Source: a virus. Taken from it: a stretch of 64,000 bases of DNA. The notes beneath the pieces are model-generated. The model was not told the origin of the DNA. It saw nothing but the letters and a program-made list of their open reading frames with translations, and did not search any database. Position 1 is the first letter of the stretch, and every line of letters starts with the position of its first letter. The DNA is taken from positions 19,007-83,006 of the IMG/VR virus record IMGVR_UViG_3300046810_000256, one strand, 5' to 3'. Below, in pieces: positions 1-13,978 of the stretch. The position numbers and the translations under genes were made by a program.

Positions 1-252
1 TGGCTTCACCGATCCATTGAGCAGCACCTGATAGATATCACCGGTACTGTTCACTCGCAGGGTGACGGTCTGGCCACTGGCAAGCATCAACATGGCTTCG
101 CGGTAGGTCGTATCGGAACTGCGGCGAGGTTTCTGACTGAATTCAGACGAAACAACGGATTGTCCCGCACGCCCCATCTGCTGACTGATCAGTTTGATTG
201 CCTTGTCAGCACCAGCGGGCGAAGAGAAGTCCAGGGTATTGGTTTTGGGCAT
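1..252 (-). CDS. Hdf/DarA N-terminal-domain protein (defence-against-restriction virion protein), runs off left edge
   Basis: Not in ORF track. Manual translation from ATG at 252: MPKTNTLDFSSPAGADKAIKLISQQMGRAG...YREAMLMLASGQTVTLRVNSTGDIYQVLLNGSVKP, resembling DarA_N (GDIYQVxLNG); preceded by late-promoter motif. Confidence 0.7.
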   Translation of the reverse strand, partial: MPKTNTLDFSSPAGADKAIKLISQQMGRAGQSVVSSEFSQKPRRSSDTTYREAMLMLASGQTVTLRVNSTGDIYQVLLNGSVKP

Positions 253-288
253 GGGGCGAATACTCGGGAGTGTGTGGAAATACCCGAT

Positions 289-329
289 ATTTTGAAGCGG
301 AAAAGCGCGGGCGTAATGTGGCGCTTTGC
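289..329 (-). promoter_or_regulatory. Late-promoter motif copy 1
   Basis: GCAAA-N30-CAAAAT upstream of Hdf/DarA-like gene. Confidence 0.7.
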
Positions 330-419
330 GCCGCAAACCCTCCCGCTTGCCTGTTCTTTCGCTGCGCTTCAGAACAGGCAAGCCCTCCCGGCCCCGTAAA
401 GGTTTCGAGTGGTTCGCCT

Positions 420-945
420 TGCTACTCACTTTTGGAAGAATCGGCGAGATTCCTGCCCCCATTGCCCGCTGAGTAGACACTTCATAGACCTGCTGCATTA
501 CCGGATCTTGTCCTGTGGGACGATCCCCGCGGCGTTTTTAACGTGGTGCCGGTCTATTCCCCTTGCCCACATGGTAATGCCCCCAGGTTGCGAGCCTGGG
601 AAGGCGTGAAGCGCGTCGCACGGTCGGCCCTGTGCAATGAATCCCCATTGGGCCGTACAGTCGCAAAGACGGGTAACAATCGCTTGATATCCAACCCCAT
701 CTATCGCATACGCTTACGTCCATTTCGGGCGCACGAAAACAACTCGGGCGCGCGAAAAAGCGCGACTGCTCGATGAGTGAGGGGGCGAATCTGTAGACAA
801 GGACGCGAGATCGCGCCAGAATTGACCTACAGAGTCGAGTTCCCCCGCCGCCAAAGCAAAGGATTCCCCTCGACTCAAGGCTAAAGGAGTTTGCACCTCC
901 GCATTAGCCCTTCAAGACCCGCTTATAGCGGGTCTTGTCGTATCT
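420..945 (+). ncRNA. Candidate large structured ncRNA
   Basis: No credible ORF; many nested stems (422-428/470-476, 484-490/551-557, 582-588/594-600, 625-630/650-655, 790-796/827-833, 879-884/904-909); ends in an 11-bp hairpin. Confidence 0.55.
913..945 (+). terminator. Terminator-like hairpin
   Basis: CAAGACCCGCT-TAT-AGCGGGTCTTG followed by TCGTATCT (weak U tract). Confidence 0.55.
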
Positions 946-1001
946 GGCGCGCAGAATAACCGCGAGAATCATCAATACGCCATAGTGGCCATTTGTACAG
1001 C

Positions 1002-1049
1002 CTGTATAAAAACACAAGTCTATCCCCGTTTATCCCCGGACAAACGGGG
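1002..1049. promoter_or_regulatory. Imperfect LexA-like box plus TATCCCCGGAC operator-like site
   Basis: CTGTATAAAAACACAA (1002-1017, CAA instead of CAG); TATCCCCGTT-TATCCCCGGAC (1021-1041). Confidence 0.45.
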
Positions 1050-1100
1050 GCGCTGAAGCCCCCTATCTGCGCCGTCTCCCGACGAACGGTCGTCCTCTCC

Positions 1101-1631
1101 TTAACTCGGCAATGGCTCACTGGTAGGCGCGTTCAAGCTGTCCTTGTGCGTATGGCGCTGCACGCTGATCCCGTCGCTGGTGATGTCTCCGCCGGTCTGC
1201 GTTACCGGCCCTTTGATGCTCAATGCGGTTGCAATGGCTGCTATTGACTCAGGTGTCAGCACCAGACTGGTACCGCCGACGACAAGCGCAATTTTCTCGC
1301 CCGCGTTGATGGTGAATACCTTGTCGGCGTTGAATTCGAAGTTATCGTGGTTCCAGCGCCGGGTTGATTGCTCGTTGCCGGTGTTCACCGGGCGGTGTCC
1401 CACGATGATCGGGTAACGCTGATCACCGTTGCGGAACGCCACCCACACCGGCATGCCAACAACCACGCGGATTTCCGTGTTGGTTGAGTCGCAGCCAATC
1501 GGGTAGCACATTTCGGCGAGCGGGAACGTCGAGGCGCCGTCGGTGTAGGGCGGGATCTCCACGCGGATCTCCCGGCGTTCACGGTTGGCGTCCACTGAGC
1601 GAACAAAGCCCGGCGCGTAATTAGGTAGCAT
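1101..1631 (-). CDS. Baseplate spike / gpV-like protein (P1 gp5-like)
   Basis: OB-fold-like N-terminus (REIRVEIP...VWVAFRNGDQRYPIIVG) and C-terminal GISVQRHTH metal-binding tip; start set at MLPNY. Confidence 0.85.
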   Translation of the reverse strand: MLPNYAPGFVRSVDANRERREIRVEIPPYTDGASTFPLAEMCYPIGCDSTNTEIRVVVGMPVWVAFRNGDQRYPIIVGHRPVNTGNEQSTRRWNHDNFEFNADKVFTINAGEKIALVVGGTSLVLTPESIAAIATALSIKGPVTQTGGDITSDGISVQRHTHKDSLNAPTSEPLPS

Positions 1632-2520
1632 TGACCAGTTTCCCCATCCACAGGCGGCTGGTGCTCTCCATCGCGCCGGTTTTCTGCATAGCCGCGTGTG
1701 CGGCGGTGATGACCACAAGATTCTCCCCGCCTACCGACAGCACACTACCGGCCTGAATCTGCTGGCACTGCTGGGAGTCGACGGTCTTGGTACGCACGAG
1801 CACGCACGAGGCGTTGCGCAGCTGGCGCTGATCGCCGCGCGGCATCAGATTGATTACCCTCGACTCGCCCATCTGCCCGGTGACGATAGCCCCGGTGTCG
1901 CCCACGCTGTAGAAGCTCGGGACTTGCTGAAGCTCAAGAAACTCGCTGTCCACCTTTGCACTTGAGTCCACCTGGCCGATATCGTCCATCGGTGCCTGCT
2001 TGGCGAGGTCGGTCAAGCGCACAACCTGCAACTTGCCACCGACCAGCACCAGCGCGGCGCCTTCTTCTTGCAGCACCCTGGCCACTCCGTAACTCGGTTG
2101 AGTGCCACGAAAGCAGCTGAAGCGCGGTACCGAAAAGTCGCTACCAATGCGCAGATAGGCGCCGCAACTGCGCAGGATGGCGGAGAATGCCGCGTCCTCC
2201 ATCACCACGGCCTGCGCCAGCGGTTCGGCCAACGGTGCGCAGCTGGCCAGCAACGCGATAACACTCATTGCTTGCTGCTGGTCTTTGCCCTGCACTTCAC
2301 CCAACGGCGGCGCCTTCTGAGTTTTGACGATCTTGTAAGCCAGATTCTCCCGGCCAGACCAGACAGTGACGCCCCGCTTCAGCTTGGCTTCCAAGCCGTC
2401 GATCAGCTTCACTGTGAACTCCAGGCTGCGTGGGATCGGCGTCAAGTCCGACCGGCTCACCCACCGAATAACCACGTCGGTGGGCAGCTGGTCGCCGCTC
2501 TCACTTAAGTAGACGTTCAT
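1621..2520 (-). CDS. Baseplate hub protein (P1 gp6-like)
   Basis: RSDLTPIPRSLEFTV N-terminus; adjacent to spike gene as in P1 5-6-24 order. Confidence 0.65.
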   Translation of the reverse strand: MNVYLSESGDQLPTDVVIRWVSRSDLTPIPRSLEFTVKLIDGLEAKLKRGVTVWSGRENLAYKIVKTQKAPPLGEVQGKDQQQAMSVIALLASCAPLAEPLAQAVVMEDAAFSAILRSCGAYLRIGSDFSVPRFSCFRGTQPSYGVARVLQEEGAALVLVGGKLQVVRLTDLAKQAPMDDIGQVDSSAKVDSEFLELQQVPSFYSVGDTGAIVTGQMGESRVINLMPRGDQRQLRNASCVLVRTKTVDSQQCQQIQAGSVLSVGGENLVVITAAHAAMQKTGAMESTSRLWMGKLVNAT

Positions 2521-3262
2521 TGCCGTCCACCATGTGTTCGAAGTCGTGGCCAATGCGCTGACGCATGTTCACCGTCTGAATGGTTGGGTAGCCTGGCGGT
2601 ACGTTGGTGCTGCCGTCGTTTGGCTCGCCTTCAGCTGGCGCCCGGAAGATCGGTACAACGCACTTGAGCGCGACGTCGGCGGCCAGGATCTTGATGTTCT
2701 TCTGATCGACGTCCACCTTCATCCAGTCGATACGCTTCGTCTCCAGCTGCATCGGCGCCGGAACTTCGTATTGGCCGAACTTGTATTTGGCATCCATGTA
2801 GCGGCGATGCGGTTCCTGCATGAAAGCGCTCAGCTGCGCCGCCAGCGACTTGGCCGAGTCGCCGTCGCTGGCGACGATCACAAGCTGAATACGTCGGTCG
2901 TGCATGTCTTGCCGGTAGTCGTACCACGAACCGCCTTCAAGGATCTGCACGCGCTCAAAGCCGGTGTGGTGGCCGCCCCAATCGGCGCCGGTACCCAAAA
3001 AATCATCATCGGTGGCCAGCAGCAGCACCGGCAGTTTCGTCGTCGCGCCTGGCGGGCCGTTTTCGTTCTTGCGGTACTGCGCCAGCATGGCTTCAACCTT
3101 GTCCAGCATCCGCCCGGACGCCCATTGCATGGCTTGAGCCGGGCGGCGCTCTTTGAAGTCCCTGACTGCCGAAGTATCCGCGTAAATCGCCTTAAACCAG
3201 TCGAGCAGGTACCAGCCAAACGCCTCCTTTTGCTGGATAAAGCTGCCGTTCATTTCGTTCAT
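2501..3262 (-). CDS. Tail completion/terminator protein (P1 gp24-like)
   Basis: Synteny and size; overlapping stop/start coupling with neighbour. Confidence 0.5.
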   Translation of the reverse strand: MNEMNGSFIQQKEAFGWYLLDWFKAIYADTSAVRDFKERRPAQAMQWASGRMLDKVEAMLAQYRKNENGPPGATTKLPVLLLATDDDFLGTGADWGGHHTGFERVQILEGGSWYDYRQDMHDRRIQLVIVASDGDSAKSLAAQLSAFMQEPHRRYMDAKYKFGQYEVPAPMQLETKRIDWMKVDVDQKNIKILAADVALKCVVPIFRAPAEGEPNDGSTNVPPGYPTIQTVNMRQRIGHDFEHMVDGNERLLK

Positions 3263-5922: not shown

Positions 5923-7929
5923 TCAGCGACCGATGGCCAGATAGACGAACGGAATGGCTAGACTTCCCGAAGAACGCACATGCACTACCGACCAGTTGAG
6001 GACGTTCGCCGCAAAAAAATGATCGGTTGTAATGCTGTTGCTGTTCTGCAATTCGGAACTCCGGTAACCCAAAATTCGGAAAACTTGATTTGGAAAGGCC
6101 ATCGGGAATGCGTAGGTATTGGTCACAATCGTCGTGCCCACCTGCGCCGTCTGCTGCCCCCACTGGATAATCACGCCGCCCAGCCACGACGGCAGTGCAA
6201 GCCAGCCGTTGACGCCGAAGTTCCAAGACACACCCATGCGTAGCTTTTTCGGCGTAACGATGGTGGCGTCATCAGCACCTGCATCTGTTAGAGATTGAGT
6301 TGCGATTTTTGCGGTGCCTTGATTTTGTTCAGAGGCTTGCGCTGCGAGATACGCCAATGCTGCGATATCAATCTGCCCCTGATTGACCGGCGCGTTCCAG
6401 GCCTTGATGCACCACATCACCGCCAAGTTGCGCGGGCGCACAGTTCGCCAATATGCCGTGCCAAAGGAACCGGACTGCATCCCTGTCGCCGTGTAGTTGA
6501 TATCCGCAGCGAATCCCGGCGCAGGATCAGCATCAATCTGCGCAACGTTGGCAATTCCTTGAACCGTTGGGCCGACACCGTCGTCACCTTGAACTTTAGT
6601 GCCGACTTGATAACTGCCAACCGCACGTCCGGCATCAACCCCGCGCCCATGATCCCAGCCACGCAGGAACTCGGCGCGCGATTCTGGCAGGCGAAAGTTA
6701 CCTGCGCCCTCATCGCCCTTGTTGAAGATCATGCCCAGGTACGCAGCCAAATCCGGATATGCCGCAATGCTTTGCACGCTGCCATCCACCTCCAAATAGC
6801 CCGGCGGAACGGTGGCGTTCGGCATTGGAAGCATGCTGCCTACTGGCAAGCCAGAAGAGGTTTTAAGCAATTCCAACACTTCGGCTTTGGTGTAGCTGTC
6901 TGCCACCTTGAACGACTTGAACGCGAGGAATTCCATGCGGTCATCGACGTTGCAAGGAATCGCCAACGTGACCTTTGAGCCGTCGGCAGCCGATGCGAAG
7001 TCGTAAACCTCCCGACCGTTACGCAGCGCGATGATGCTGCCGGGAACGTGCGGGAAGGTGAACACTGACTGAGCAACTGCCGCCGTGAAGGAAAACCGCT
7101 CGAAAGCCTTGCCGCTGCCCACGCCGCCGCCCAGCTGGAACACTGCGCCGTCGTAGTTGAGGTCGTACAGCGATCCGGCTTTGATATCGCCCGCATCCAG
7201 ATCCACTAGGCCGGTATCACCGCCCCGCTTCACTGCCTTGACGCCAAGCCCTTCGATGTTGACGGTTACCGGCGTTGTGTTGGTGCTGGCGGCCACGAAC
7301 TGGAAGCGCTGGAATTTCGCCAGCGTAGGCAAAGCCGACTCGGGCGCGTCCAGCTCCAGCAGCAGCGCATTCGCCGCACTACCAGCAGAATGCTTCAGCC
7401 CCATCAGCGGGCCTGCATCCTTCGCCACGTCTGCACGCAACAGGTATTGCGGGTGCGCGTTCGCGGCCCCCTCATGTTCGGACAGGGCTGCCAGCGCCGC
7501 ACTTTGGTCGGGATCGATGACGATGGTAATGCTGTTCGCCGGTACCTGTGCAAAGGCCAGATCCGCGAACATGACGTAGGCCACGCCATTGGTTTTGTAG
7601 GACGCGATTTGTCCGTTGGCTTTCGACCAGACAAACGCAAGGGTATCGCCAGCCCAGAATGCAATCTCGCCAATCGGAACGTCGCCTACGTCCTCTTTCC
7701 ATGCGGCGCTGATCCGCAGCTGGTAAGGCGTAGGGCGGCTACCGCCAGCAAAGGGAACACGGCTACCCACTGGACTGACCAACGCCACCTCGGTGCCGTC
7801 AGGGTCGTAGTGGGCCAAGCCGAACGAAACGCTGTCTACGATGAGTTCAATCCTGGTATTGCTGGCGTTGAACGCCGCAGCCTGACCGGCGAGCGTCAGC
7901 GTGGGATTGAGAATTAAAGGATCTGCCAT
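5923..7929 (-). CDS. Main tail fibre protein
   Basis: HEGAANAHPQYL, tail collar (PVGS...PPGYLEVDGS...FRLPESRAEFLRGWD), C-terminal GVIIQWG...FPMAFPN...YLAIGR. Confidence 0.9.
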   Translation of the reverse strand: MADPLILNPTLTLAGQAAAFNASNTRIELIVDSVSFGLAHYDPDGTEVALVSPVGSRVPFAGGSRPTPYQLRISAAWKEDVGDVPIGEIAFWAGDTLAFVWSKANGQIASYKTNGVAYVMFADLAFAQVPANSITIVIDPDQSAALAALSEHEGAANAHPQYLLRADVAKDAGPLMGLKHSAGSAANALLLELDAPESALPTLAKFQRFQFVAASTNTTPVTVNIEGLGVKAVKRGGDTGLVDLDAGDIKAGSLYDLNYDGAVFQLGGGVGSGKAFERFSFTAAVAQSVFTFPHVPGSIIALRNGREVYDFASAADGSKVTLAIPCNVDDRMEFLAFKSFKVADSYTKAEVLELLKTSSGLPVGSMLPMPNATVPPGYLEVDGSVQSIAAYPDLAAYLGMIFNKGDEGAGNFRLPESRAEFLRGWDHGRGVDAGRAVGSYQVGTKVQGDDGVGPTVQGIANVAQIDADPAPGFAADINYTATGMQSGSFGTAYWRTVRPRNLAVMWCIKAWNAPVNQGQIDIAALAYLAAQASEQNQGTAKIATQSLTDAGADDATIVTPKKLRMGVSWNFGVNGWLALPSWLGGVIIQWGQQTAQVGTTIVTNTYAFPMAFPNQVFRILGYRSSELQNSNSITTDHFFAANVLNWSVVHVRSSGSLAIPFVYLAIGR

Positions 7930-10465: not shown

Positions 10466-13063
10466 TTACAACTGCATGCCAATCCCGCCAGCGGAGACGT
10501 GAGCAATGCTCCTATCCTGTACGTTTTGCGATAGCGGCGTTTCAAGGTTCACCGTCGTAGGGCCTTCTTTGCCCCCACCAGATCCCGGCGGTGGCGCTTT
10601 CACCTCGGCCATGCTTGGAATCTTCACTTGGCTGGCGTCTGCCGCTGCTGGCGCATAGCTCGCCACTTTGGGGGCCGCCAGCGTTGCCGGTATCGCGTTG
10701 TTTGCCACGGACACCGGGCGAACCTGTGAGGGGGCCATGATGCCGATTGGCGTAGCGGCCTGGGCCCCGGCAAGGCTTTTGGGTGACGCCACCGCCGCCA
10801 TGGTGCTGGCCACCGCCGTGCCGACTGCCGCGGGCGCCGCTACCTTCATTTCGTCCGCGCGCCGGGTAGGCGTCAGATCGCCCGCCTTGGCTTGCGCCAG
10901 ATAGGTTTCTTCGTACTTCTTCTGCACGTCGGCCAGGCCGTTGGTGCCGCCGTTCGTGAGCTTGCGCGCCTTGACCATGTCCCCGGCCTGAGCCGCCTTG
11001 TCGGCGCCGGAGCTTTTCCAGTGCTGCACCGCGATCTGCGCCGAATACTTCGGATCCGCCGCCAGCTCAGGGTTGTTCACAAGGTCTACGCCCAGCTTCT
11101 TGCCCATTTCCTCATACTGGGCGCGCCCGGTCAGCTGCAACGCCCCACGCCCGCGAAACTTGTAGCCGTCGCCGGGATCCTTGTTCCCCATACGCCCGCC
11201 ATAGACCTTGTTGGCGATAGCCTCGGGGTTGTTGGCGTCGGCGCGGGCTGACTCGGCATCCTTGTAGTATTTGGGGAAAACCTCCTGCAAGCGCTTGGCG
11301 CTGTAGTTCAGGTTCTCTTCTTTCTTCGTGAAACCGCCCGACTCGTGGTCAACGTTGGCCATCAGCATGGCCTTGGATTTAGGGTCTGTAATGCCGCCCG
11401 CGTCCATGGCCTGAATCAGCTGATCCTTGGCGGCGTTGGAACTGCTCGATCCAAACTTCCCGCCCGTTGCCTTGTAGAGCATGTTTGAACCGGCGTCAGC
11501 GACACTGCTCGCCTTGTCGGCCACGTAATCCTTGCCGTCCTGCACCTTGTCCATCACGGTGTCTTTAACGCCCAGCACCGCATCGGTGGCCTTGTTCCAG
11601 GCGTCTTTGATCCACTGTCCAACAGCGGTGAAGGCTTTGGCCTGTACATCAAGGAAGCCCTTGAAGCCATCCGATACAAAGTTGAATGCAGCGGTGGCCG
11701 CTTCAAGTGCGCCATCCTTCAAGCTGTTGAAGGCATCACCGATCTTGCCCGGGATTGCATCCAAGTCCACGGTCGACAGCCACTCGCCGACCAAACCGCC
11801 CAAGGCATCACCGATAATGCCGCCAGCGATGACGCCAGCAGGGCCGCCGAGCATGCCCACGAGGCCACCAACGATGCCGCCGACACCACTGCCGACGTTG
11901 CCCCACTTGTTTTTCTTGTTCTCCTCGGGAGACAGGTTTGGATCGTCATCTGCCATCGCGTCGGACGCGAGCATTGCGCCACCGAACAAGGCGCCGATAA
12001 AGGGGATCTTTTTCAGCAGCCCCTTGCCCAACTTCGCCGCACCGCCACCCATACTTTTCAGCAGCCCCTTAAGGCCGCCGCCTTTCGTTGCGGATGCGGC
12101 TTTGGCTGCGTTTTTTGCGTCTTTCGCAGCCGCCGCGGCAGCTTTCCCCTTGCCATCAATTGGTGAGCCGTCTGCGCTCAAGGCATTACGGGAGTGGGAG
12201 TTGTCCCGCCCTCGCCCACTGCGCCCACCGACATCCCCACCACGAGAAGAGCGACGGGAGCGACGGCCCGGCAGGAGGCTGCTGGCAGCCTTCAATAGCC
12301 GAGAAGCACCCAAGAGCCGCCCCAGCGCTTTGAACGGCGCCAGCACAGCGCCAACGAGCGCCAGCAGCATCCCGAGCATGCCGCCCATCCCACCACGGCC
12401 CTTACCCTTGTTCGCGTCTTCCTGGCCTCGCCAGATGCGGCGCAGCCAGGTGACGTTCTCCCGGTGCTCTTTGGTTTGCTTGGCGTCCTTGTCGCGCCCG
12501 AACAGGCGCCCCAGCGGCTTGAACAGTGACAGGGCTGGCGACAGCAGGCTGCTCACCTCTTTGGCCGCCTGAATAGCCGGGTCAACATTGTCGACGTCGG
12601 CGGTCAGCTTGCTGCTCATGTCCTTGGCTGCGTCGACAATCGAACTGCCGATTGCCTGGGCGGCGCCTGGGCCCATTGATCCGTCTGCGCTGGCGCCCCT
12701 TGCCGAGCTGCTGCCACCCGTGAAGCGTCCGGAAGCGTCTCGTGTTCCCGCCTGGCGCGGTGTGGCCGCCATGCGCTCAGACACAGGACGGCCCGAACTC
12801 CCGCCACCGGAACGCGAAGGCGAACGCGGTGAGGCTGGATCGTTGGCGGCGGCGCTGGTGCTGATCGATGCGCGGCGAGCGCCAGCAGGTTCGGGCTGCA
12901 CTGCCGGACGTCGCTGGCTCAGGCCGCCCAGGTGCTTGACGATAGCGCTGGTGTTGCTCTCGATCTGGCGCAGCAGCTTCAGCTCTTGCGCCAGCTGCTC
13001 AACCTCATCAGCAATACTCTCGCCGCGCAGAAAGCCGGTCGACGAATCATGTTCGATGGCCAT
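10466..13063 (-). CDS. Tape measure protein (P1 Sit-like) with GH19 muramidase/chitinase domain
   Basis: Ala/Gly-rich helical repeats and hydrophobic segments; HESGGF...ENLNYSA...IANKVYGGRMGN...DGYKFRGRGALQLTGR. Confidence 0.85.
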   Translation of the reverse strand: MAIEHDSSTGFLRGESIADEVEQLAQELKLLRQIESNTSAIVKHLGGLSQRRPAVQPEPAGARRASISTSAAANDPASPRSPSRSGGGSSGRPVSERMAATPRQAGTRDASGRFTGGSSSARGASADGSMGPGAAQAIGSSIVDAAKDMSSKLTADVDNVDPAIQAAKEVSSLLSPALSLFKPLGRLFGRDKDAKQTKEHRENVTWLRRIWRGQEDANKGKGRGGMGGMLGMLLALVGAVLAPFKALGRLLGASRLLKAASSLLPGRRSRRSSRGGDVGGRSGRGRDNSHSRNALSADGSPIDGKGKAAAAAAKDAKNAAKAASATKGGGLKGLLKSMGGGAAKLGKGLLKKIPFIGALFGGAMLASDAMADDDPNLSPEENKKNKWGNVGSGVGGIVGGLVGMLGGPAGVIAGGIIGDALGGLVGEWLSTVDLDAIPGKIGDAFNSLKDGALEAATAAFNFVSDGFKGFLDVQAKAFTAVGQWIKDAWNKATDAVLGVKDTVMDKVQDGKDYVADKASSVADAGSNMLYKATGGKFGSSSSNAAKDQLIQAMDAGGITDPKSKAMLMANVDHESGGFTKKEENLNYSAKRLQEVFPKYYKDAESARADANNPEAIANKVYGGRMGNKDPGDGYKFRGRGALQLTGRAQYEEMGKKLGVDLVNNPELAADPKYSAQIAVQHWKSSGADKAAQAGDMVKARKLTNGGTNGLADVQKKYEETYLAQAKAGDLTPTRRADEMKVAAPAAVGTAVASTMAAVASPKSLAGAQAATPIGIMAPSQVRPVSVANNAIPATLAAPKVASYAPAAADASQVKIPSMAEVKAPPPGSGGGKEGPTTVNLETPLSQNVQDRSIAHVSAGGIGMQL

Positions 13064-13066
13064 GGC

Positions 13067-13978
13067 TTACTGCCCACCGAGGACGGAACCAACAACCGAC
13101 AGGACTTTCTTGACGCCGCTGGTAACGGTGGCCATGGCGCCCTTGTCGTCTTCCTTCTCCGGCTCAGGCTGGTAGCCGGGCAGCTCAGTGCGGGCCATGA
13201 ATCGGTTCGCGCTGTCGAGCATTGCGGTGCCCGGATCCATGTTGATACCGCGCTCCATCACCGCCGGTGCGCTGTCGAGCATGGGCGCCTCGATCTTCGC
13301 CTGGCGCAGACGTTCCAGCAGCCTGGCGTTGTACTCAGTCAGTTCATCGTTGATTTTGTATTGCTTCAAGATGTCGTTACTGAGCCCTTCGGCGAAGGCG
13401 TCAGACTCTTTGATCATGTTGTCGACCGAATCCAGCAGCGCGGCGCTTTCCGTTGGGAAGGTGTCGACCGGCGCGAATACGCCCGGCGTCACACTGTCCA
13501 GCATCACCGCATAGCCGCGGTTGTTGTCGTAGTTCGGCGCACGCACCAGATCCATGCCGAAATACCCCTTGGGCACGCGCAGGCCGTTCTCTTCAGGCGC
13601 GTAGATTGCCGAACTGAAGCCATAGGCCTTGCTGTCCCACAGACGCGCGCCAACACGCCCCGGCGCGGTATCAAGAAACTCTTGCTCGTGCTCCACGTCA
13701 CCATTTGGGTAGCACTTGAGGTAGAGCGTGCGGCACGTCGGCTCAAGCACTACAGGCACGTTGTCCACCATGACGGTTTCCGGAACGTCCAGCCCGTATT
13801 TCTCCCGGTACTGGTGGCCGATAAAGCCATAGATGTCACCCTTGCGGATCGACTCCTGAAGCGCCGCACCGTTGAACAAGCGCATGGCGGCATCAATGTC
13901 GATTGCGCGCTTCTGCCCGGTGAAGCTGCGCTTGATGTCGTTCAGGTTGTAGCGGATCACGCCCGTGCGCTTACTCAT
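13067..13978 (-). CDS. Prohead processing protease (P1 Pro-like)
   Basis: YGFIGH, VEHEQEFLDTAPG, GFSSA, FGMDLVRAPNY; follows portal. Confidence 0.75.
   Translation of the reverse strand: MSKRTGVIRYNLNDIKRSFTGQKRAIDIDAAMRLFNGAALQESIRKGDIYGFIGHQYREKYGLDVPETVMVDNVPVVLEPTCRTLYLKCYPNGDVEHEQEFLDTAPGRVGARLWDSKAYGFSSAIYAPEENGLRVPKGYFGMDLVRAPNYDNNRGYAVMLDSVTPGVFAPVDTFPTESAALLDSVDNMIKESDAFAEGLSNDILKQYKINDELTEYNARLLERLRQAKIEAPMLDSAPAVMERGINMDPGTAMLDSANRFMARTELPGYQPEPEKEDDKGAMATVTSGVKKVLSVVGSVLGGQ

Follow-up and report, generated by a model that had tools for sequence, protein, structure and literature searches.

What lies between the baseplate-spike-like gene and the DarA_N-domain gene of a Pseudomonas phage-plasmid, where 848 nt (253-1100) are free of genes? 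The question is raised by a stretch of 64,000 nucleotides (hereafter the window), which comprises bases 19007-83006 of the 83,006-bp viral record IMGVR_UViG_3300046810_000256. An earlier note, made from the letters of this DNA alone, had singled out 420-945 as a densely folded RNA encoded on the plus strand, opposite to the flanking genes, and had proposed a new class of phage non-coding RNA. Our analysis indicates that a large, conserved and intricately folded RNA is encoded here, but that it belongs, together with a short antisense partner, to the RNA II and RNA I pair of a ColE1-type origin; a replication origin, which the earlier note had named among the things that would refute its reading, does explain the region. 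Window positions ~340-960 (~620 bp) very likely represent such an origin, that is, one of the theta, RNA-primed and Rep-independent kind, and we regard the element as a ColE1-type origin that has diverged and whose host and carrier are both unusual. A literature search for a ColE1-type origin in a phage-plasmid returned no such report, which is not proof of absence.

Kinship with ColE1-like plasmids

A blastn search of the gap against plasmids recovered 11 small plasmids (2.9-6 kb) of Zymobacter, Oceanimonas and Aeromonas, which match window 349-698 at 67-72% identity and have no gene beneath the matching segment. The same search recovered, at 91% identity, the circular plasmid of Pseudomonas fluorescens DR133 (CP048608.1; 80,993 bp). 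Among 50,697 phage records, blastn detected no DNA similar to the gap. The company that the matching segment keeps is telling: in the Zymobacter plasmid it is adjoined by a gene for Rop (annotated as 'plasmid primer RNA-binding protein'), convergent as in ColE1, and the Oceanimonas plasmid pOCEGK02 has been classed as 'ColE1-only' (Ares-Arroyo et al., PMC8683028, S3 Table). To avoid circularity, we used two separate profiles, one made from the five phage copies only and the other from three small plasmids only. The phage-only profile detected the Zymobacter (E 1.7e-45), Oceanimonas (E 9.7e-34) and Aeromonas (E 3.8e-19) plasmids, and the plasmid-only profile detected both window 290-706 on the minus strand (E 4.3e-49) and ColE1 627-955 (E 3.9e-26). 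Profile searches in both directions thus establish sequence homology between the origin region and accepted ColE1-like replicons.

The bounds of the module, ~340-960, were set from two lines of evidence, since a related origin lodged in another backbone diverges from the window exactly at 339, and the similarity to the small plasmids begins at the -10 hexamer of the presumed primer promoter. No rep gene adjoins the module; the genome has an RPA-family rep gene ~6 kb away. The observation in the earlier note that the region lacks a credible open reading frame holds for the whole of the gap. Two small frames, 543-776 on the plus strand and 538-723 on the minus strand, are open in the near-identical phage copies. 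However, the homologous segment of the small plasmids varies in length by non-multiples of three and has gained stops in most of them, which argues against a conserved coding frame.

The large RNA, its strand and its antisense partner

The folding of 420-945 improves on dinucleotide shuffles, the comparison that the earlier note had proposed, on both strands: the plus strand reaches -196 kcal/mol (z -3.5) and the minus strand -216.8 kcal/mol (z -3.9), the latter being more stable by 21 kcal/mol. The covariation that it had suggested looking for was sought in the 3' part of RNA II, in an alignment of 11 sequences, of which four come from phage-plasmids and seven from small plasmids. The consensus structure has 77 pairs, with 97.4% of the cells able to pair; 34 of the 77 change on both sides, as against 2-7 in slid controls, and no shuffle reached the observed covariation. 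When the same pairs are read on the plus strand, 87.5% of the cells pair, with 90 cells being G-U and several of these invariant. Given this difference in pairing, we place the large RNA on the minus strand, the strand of the flanking genes, and not on the plus strand as had been proposed. The nested helices that had been drawn across 420-945 have largely survived: most of the named ones recur in the comparative structure and many covary. These are:

422-429 / 468-476: the CTACTCA/TGAGTAG helix, with five covarying pairs
477-483 / 608-614: the CTTCA/TGAAG helix, recurring in the comparative structure
581-601: the CCCAGG/CCTGGG helix, recurring likewise
625-655: the CGGCCC/GGGCCG helix, recurring likewise
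Within the same structure: the GCATTA/TAATGC helix, recurring likewise
790-833: the TCTGTAG/CTACAGA helix, recurring likewise
879-909: the GGCTAA/TTAGCC helix, recurring likewise
913-937: an 11-bp hairpin, with one compensatory change of A-U to G-C in the relative L003

The plus strand retains one RNA, the ~115-nt RNA I, and the large RNA is not on it. Similarly, 420-945 does delimit an RNA region, but the element reaches further left, to the G-rich segment at 384-398 and the origin hairpin at 345-383. It would be hard to credit, in this light, a new class of plus-strand phage non-coding RNA unrelated to replication. Such a class would be in keeping with the want of any Rfam family at threshold and with a plus strand that itself beats the shuffles (z -3.5). 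It is contradicted by the homology to ColE1-like origins, by a structure that pairs better on the minus strand and leaves invariant G-U on the other, and by the sole plus-strand promoter, which lies at 794-822, well inside the stretch. The features of the ColE1-type origin itself are as follows:

366..945, minus: RNA II pre-primer, ~580 nt, with a predicted start at A945 and a predicted RNA-to-DNA switch at ~366-368; from alignment to ColE1 and small plasmids and from the covarying structure, the ends being predictions
953..958, minus: putative RNA II promoter -10, TATTCT, aligning with TAATCT of ColE1 and invariant in six phage-plasmids
642..645, minus: G-run located ~278 nt before the predicted origin, in the loop that caps hairpin 625-655 (covarying), and aligning with the G6 run of ColE1 at -268
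384..398, minus: G-rich stretch of the RNA (C-rich in the template), at -17 to -31 from the predicted origin, aligning with the G6 run of ColE1 at -21
345..383, minus: 13-bp origin hairpin, the loop of which holds the invariant AGCGCAGCG and the predicted RNA-to-DNA switch; compensatory changes among the 11 sequences
790..833, minus: extra hairpin of the phage clade in the RNA II 5' part; its inner stem varies with compensation, and the small plasmids have a gap here
794..822, plus: putative RNA I promoter, TAGACA, a 17-nt spacer and CAGAAT; the sole sigma-70-like site found in 200-1150
829..945, plus: antisense RNA I, ~115 nt, predicted start ~829, with three hairpins at 832-876, 879-909 and 913-937

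A pre-primer of the ~550-nt class with a conserved structure can therefore be traced from promoter to oriV, its ends as placed by alignment. The ColE1-like G-rich loop and the G-rich stretch near -20 are both recognizable by alignment and by position; in ColE1 these G-runs keep the transcript hybridised to its template. The context of the ColE1 origin aligns with the loop of the 345-383 hairpin, and this hairpin is the signature of the origin subfamily. Among species-representative genomes, a search with a 23-nt signature returned small contigs of Aeromonas, Oceanisphaera, Kushneria and Rheinheimera and one 82.7-kb contig of Pseudomonas; within IMG/VR the signature is confined to the phage clade of the window. 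A match in the chromosome of a Maricaulis metagenome-assembled genome was discarded, as only the 23-mer is common to both and nothing else aligns. In the 7,661-bp Kushneria contig (L033) the signature occurs twice, 3,751 bp apart, probably because a ~3.75-kb plasmid is present as a head-to-tail dimer or because its assembly ran around the circle.

On the opposite strand, the extra hairpin of the phage clade (790..833) contains the RNA I promoter. An antisense RNA of the ~100-nt class with a promoter, stem-loops and a terminator-like hairpin can be discerned, with one compensatory change in five relatives. Its region, 826-948, folds with a z of -4.9 and has a consensus fold in the five relatives, and the last of its hairpins (913-937) resembles a terminator and, like its counterpart in ColE1, ends at the start of RNA II. 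Further, Rfam RNAI scores above its gathering threshold in plasmids or contigs of Aeromonas, Oceanimonas and Rheinheimera; these matches lie on the strand that corresponds to the plus strand of the window, 110-145 nt beyond the conserved core, and the RNA I of the window is syntenic with them. The RNA of the window has the architecture of RNA I and stands outside the Rfam family as modelled. At the place expected for RNA I, the Zymobacter and Kushneria plasmids show near-threshold matches to Rfam 'sar RNA', with 39.9 and 44.7 bits against a gathering threshold of 43 (L010 3488-3554; L033 1484-1550 and 5235-5301); these matches probably represent a differently shaped RNA I and not sar. A separate observation on the RNA II strand is that GAGUCGAGGGG (866-876) can pair either with CUCGACUC (833-840) in the alignment consensus or with CCCCUCACUC (775-784) in the minimum-free-energy fold of the single sequence, and these mutually exclusive helices are reminiscent of the folding switch of ColE1 RNA II.

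Briefly, we advance the following mechanism, which is modelled on this layout. Host RNA polymerase would start RNA II near 945 on the minus strand; the ~580-nt transcript would fold and stay hybridised to the template at 366-398 by means of the G-run at 642-645 and the G-rich segment at 384-398. RNase H would then cut the hybrid at ~366-368 and DNA polymerase I would extend the resulting primer. RNA I (~829-945), transcribed from its own promoter and a perfect complement of the 5'-most ~115 nt of RNA II, would 'kiss' the hairpins of the nascent RNA II and divert its folding, and would set both the frequency of firing and the specificity of incompatibility. The part given here to RNase H and DNA polymerase I is presumed, as are the ends of the two transcripts, and we infer that the origin fires in Pseudomonas.

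Conservation, rival readings and a second replicon

The origin is shared by six phage-plasmids, namely that of the window, L002/G001, L003, L004/G002 (the DR133 plasmid), L015 and L035, and the flanking genes are identical in kind in all five further elements. Two of the carriers are from cultured strains, P. fluorescens DR133 (L004/G002, a circular plasmid) and P. azerbaijanoccidentalis SWRI74 (L035, a contig of 82,730 bp). Relative to L002, L003, L004 and L015, the origin core (340-790) is 93-96% identical, as against 75-80% for the DarA_N gene, 73-77% for the spike gene and 73-82% for flanking coding DNA. The variation that does exist is clustered upstream of the -10 hexamer, between the two hexamers of the RNA I promoter, and in the RNA I/RNA II hairpins, where it affects the loops and the inner stems and where changes in the stems are compensated. 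An 8.9-kb contig from wastewater follows window 2-1600 in colinear fashion and has diverged from it at 839-905 only (hairpins I-II of RNA I), with no change in length; judging from its sequence, it appears to be a natural variant with a different RNA I specificity. Divergence in the RNA I/RNA II hairpins is the pattern expected of ColE1-type incompatibility determinants. Taken together, these patterns make it very probable that the origin is under selection. Metatranscriptomes add a 153-nt contig from the rhizosphere (over 546-698) and, from leaf litter, a related origin over 339-646 in another backbone; contigs in RNA libraries were taken as no indication of transcription.

The origin does not appear to be the only replicon of its carriers. 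The genome of the window (G000) has a complete RPA replicon at ~12.3-13.6 kb (C1 ~12,260-13,600; L018 1417-2728), ~6 kb away and outside the window, which consists of a 341-aa rep gene, five iterons (GTAATTYACCCACC) in direct orientation spaced 21 bp apart, and two further copies in the inverted orientation. G001 and G002 are without RPA, and their slot instead holds a 186-aa winged-helix protein with adjacent repeats; in the DR133 plasmid (L021 872-1432 on the minus strand and 1486-1734, corresponding to CP048608.1), the protein lies beside direct and inverted repeats of 19-24 bp. Homologues of this protein occur on 57 Pseudomonas plasmid records; the protein is widespread among Pseudomonas plasmids of 36-111 kb, often lies at record position 1 and was annotated once as 'replication protein', and it probably represents an under-annotated Rep family. 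The notion that the origin is the sole replicon of the DR133 plasmid is ruled out by this winged-helix protein and its repeats. Searches of the genome for the domains Rep_3 and ParB_N gave no match, and RepL (PF05732) gave a 14-bit, sub-threshold match in G002 only, with the proviso that the Pfam model may not cover the RepL of P1.

In the more distant relatives L009 (7525-8801) and L006 (2511-3834), an RPA-family rep gene with iterons is found in the very gap that holds the origin in the window (PF10134, E 4e-52 and 1e-63; four or five iterons at 21-bp spacing). The gap between the spike and DarA genes has therefore served as a replicon slot for two unrelated types of replicon. The idea that L005-L009 carry a diverged copy of the same origin was rejected, as neither blastn nor a profile search gave a match within the fetched loci. 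The gaps of L005 and L008 have a small PAAR-like frame (in L005, at 7404-7666, of ~87 aa and directly after the spike gene), and that of L007 has ~465 nt of other sequence.

Several points weigh against the interpretation as a working ColE1-type origin. A protein-based replicon is found in all three origin-bearing genomes checked (G000, G001 and G002); we accordingly regard the origin as a second replicon, and with the other one present it is not needed to explain the maintenance of the plasmid. No -35 hexamer could be found at 16-18 nt from the -10 of RNA II, and a sigma-70 scan reported no minus-strand promoter; a TTGATG 11 nt upstream of the -10 is unconserved. On the side of RNA I, the terminator-like hairpin has a U-poor tail, and Rfam RNAI (RF00106) matches the window over its full length, at 830-938 on the plus strand, with only 12.3 bits and an E of 5.7 against a gathering threshold of 47. 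A first-pass Rfam scan of 1-3000 reported nothing at E<=1, and a scan of 780-1000 gave only sub-threshold rows. The phage-only profile does not match ColE1 itself, and the direct match between the window and ColE1, although colinear, is marginal (82 nt at 65% identity, E 0.017). The ColE1 link is for this reason transitive but, on the profile comparisons, firm. A search for Rop (PF01815) in G000, G001 and G002 gave no match and was uninformative, as control genomes gave none either; ColE1-like replicons need not carry a rop gene. The high identity of the core could partly reflect recent exchange instead of selection. ColE1 replicons are generally held to be non-functional in Pseudomonas. Finally, among 1,035 ColE1 plasmids in five orders, a survey had only one Pseudomonas record, which is linear and of 1,350 bp (PMC8683028); the same work asked whether ColE1 is absent from Pseudomonas or merely missed.

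These points might be accommodated by a relic, that is, a small ColE1-like plasmid that became co-integrated and no longer fires in the 83-kb element. Every origin-bearing genome checked has another replicon, the RNA II promoter is without a -35, and ColE1 origins in large plasmids are known as co-integrates, with the question of whether the origin works inside large replicons having been left open (PMC8683028). We nevertheless consider a relic unlikely. The core is 93-96% identical where the genes are 73-82%, substitutions in stems are compensated, and both hexamers of the RNA I promoter and the -10 of RNA II are invariant, whereas the spacers, including that between the RNA I hexamers, and the loops vary. 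Moreover, the module is minimal (~620 bp), with no mob, rop or transposon remnants seen beside it, and it has been maintained in six genomes from different samples. A functional ColE1-type origin thus remains our preferred interpretation, and its role may be an auxiliary one in the plasmid state or one exercised after induction.

Putative upstream wiring and likeness to known systems

The phage is a distant P1/D6-like relative and a Pseudomonas phage-plasmid (its baseplate protein has an identity of 22-23% to those of P1 and D6 and of 34% to that of Xanthomonas phage Rb1), and its 83,006-bp record has terminal repeats of 127 bp. The features around the origin module are:

Stop at 1101, minus: baseplate-spike-like gene (phrog_11), bordering the gap; the gene next to it is phrog_1390, a tail protein
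1046..1063, minus: terminator-like hairpin after the spike-like gene, a 6-bp G+C stem followed by GTTTGT; read from the sequence, unflagged by a simple terminator scan, and a putative mark of the end of the tail operon
1031..1042, minus: motif TGTCCGGGGATA, invariant in five aligned relatives and pointing through the origin to the dar operon
1002-1017, no strand assigned: LexA-like box CTGT-N8-ACAA (7/8 in the window) overlapping the inverted repeat; a perfect CTGT-N8-ACAG in L002 and L035
992-1010, no strand assigned: inverted repeat of 9 bp (TTTGTACAG-N-CTGTATAAA) that occurs nowhere else in the genome; with the LexA-like box, a candidate operator region (992-1017) immediately before the RNA II promoter
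253..339, minus: leader of the DarA_N gene, beyond the origin module, with a small hairpin at 320-332; clade identity falls to 82-86%
ATG at 252, minus: DarA_N-domain gene (PF18788, E 1e-13), bordering the gap

The motif TGTCCGGGGATA (variant GGTACGGGGATA) has ~12 occurrences across the genome, preceding genes and co-oriented with them: beside 1031-1042 there are ~11 other sites (e.g., 19897, 23859, 27718, 45283, 49962 and 47826), which lie 15-60 nt before gene starts, as in the case of the one 20 nt upstream of the ATG at window 19881. It is hence a candidate late or activator-dependent promoter element. The inverted repeat is conserved before the dar operon in relatives, including L005 (7673-7697), which is without the origin; its role as a general late promoter is ruled out by its single occurrence in the genome. 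The sequence before the -10 of RNA II is specific to the phage, and the repeat, the LexA-like box and the motif all face through the origin in the direction of RNA II.

This arrangement raises the possibility, on which we would place only tentative weight, that the -35 of RNA II was replaced by phage sequence (the LexA-like box, the operator and the promoter motif) that wires the origin as a lytic origin. In the lysogen, primer synthesis would be held low and the Rep-and-iteron replicon would keep the plasmid; RNA I would no longer keep pace with primer synthesis once SOS induction or late activation set in. If true, this would be a protein-free counterpart of the oriL/RepL system of P1.

The same surroundings might be taken to mean that an RNA pair derived from an origin has been co-opted as a structured leader and its antisense RNA, which control the dar (anti-restriction) operon instead of replication. 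RNA II is indeed co-oriented with the DarA_N gene and stops ~110 nt short of the ATG of that gene, a recurrent promoter-like motif lies upstream in the same direction, and in L005 the upstream repeat stands directly before the dar gene, with no origin between. Nonetheless, the loop with the G-run, the G-rich zone near -20 and the origin hairpin are exactly the parts that are conserved with the small plasmids, and it is not evident what they would do in a leader. The RNA pair could serve both purposes, and control of dar in place of replication strikes us as quite improbable.

The significance of a ColE1-type origin at this locus derives from the fact that such origins are features of small, multicopy, narrow-host-range enterobacterial plasmids. 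Here, a clade of ~80-kb Pseudomonas phage-plasmids keeps a bare version at a fixed site, more tightly conserved than its neighbors and beside a protein-based replicon. Typing of replicons by their proteins is blind to such an origin, and in PLSDB the P. fluorescens DR133 plasmid is without a listed replicon; likewise, surveys of phage-plasmids that rely on replicase genes will undercount replicons. In practical terms, the module is a candidate protein-free origin for Pseudomonas vectors, and it could serve to examine, in a tractable setting, how an RNA origin under copy-number control shares an element with a low-copy replicon and with a lytic cycle.

Among known systems, the closest are the small plasmids of Aeromonadales and Halomonadaceae (pOCEGK02, NC_016747.1; pZB5060, NZ_AP018934.1; and Aeromonas plasmids of 3-6 kb). 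Across ~400 nt, the 3' part of RNA II and the origin align with theirs at 67-72% identity and form the same covarying helices, and the loop with the G-run, the G-rich zone near -20, the origin hairpin with its AGCGCAGCG loop, and the place and strand of the antisense RNA are shared. In contrast, the 5' part (the RNA I region) is unalignable and includes one hairpin more. The -35 of the RNA II promoter has been lost, regulatory motifs of the phage lie directly next to this promoter, and the host is Pseudomonas. Further, the small plasmids are autonomous replicons of 3-8 kb, some of them with rop, mob or a putative repB, whereas here a 620-bp module sits in a phage genome of 80-83 kb.

ColE1/pMB1 (RNA I, Rfam RF00106) has a like layout, with an RNA II of 555 nt (~580 nt here), a three-hairpin RNA I over its 5' end and G-runs at ~-270 and -20, and some blocks of sequence are still alignable. 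It differs in that the RNA I of the window is below the Rfam threshold and the origin hairpin replaces the A-run context; neither a rop gene (in the uninformative search above) nor a primosome assembly site was identified. The large ColE1 co-integrates are alike in having the origin in a replicon of >25 kb that also has a protein-based replicon. Of the 62 described, 61 are from Enterobacterales, and they display transposon or insertion-sequence junctions and cargo such as rop, colicins and resistance genes (PMC8683028). The present case is instead a bare module in a phage-plasmid of Pseudomonas, at a fixed site between two virion or late operons across the clade.

Finally, the dual replicons of P1 (oriR/RepA and oriL/RepL) provide a parallel for two replication modules in one phage-plasmid, and one of the P1 modules is activated by transcription through it. 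Both P1 origins have initiator proteins; in the phage-plasmids described here, one of the two modules is protein-free and RNA-primed.

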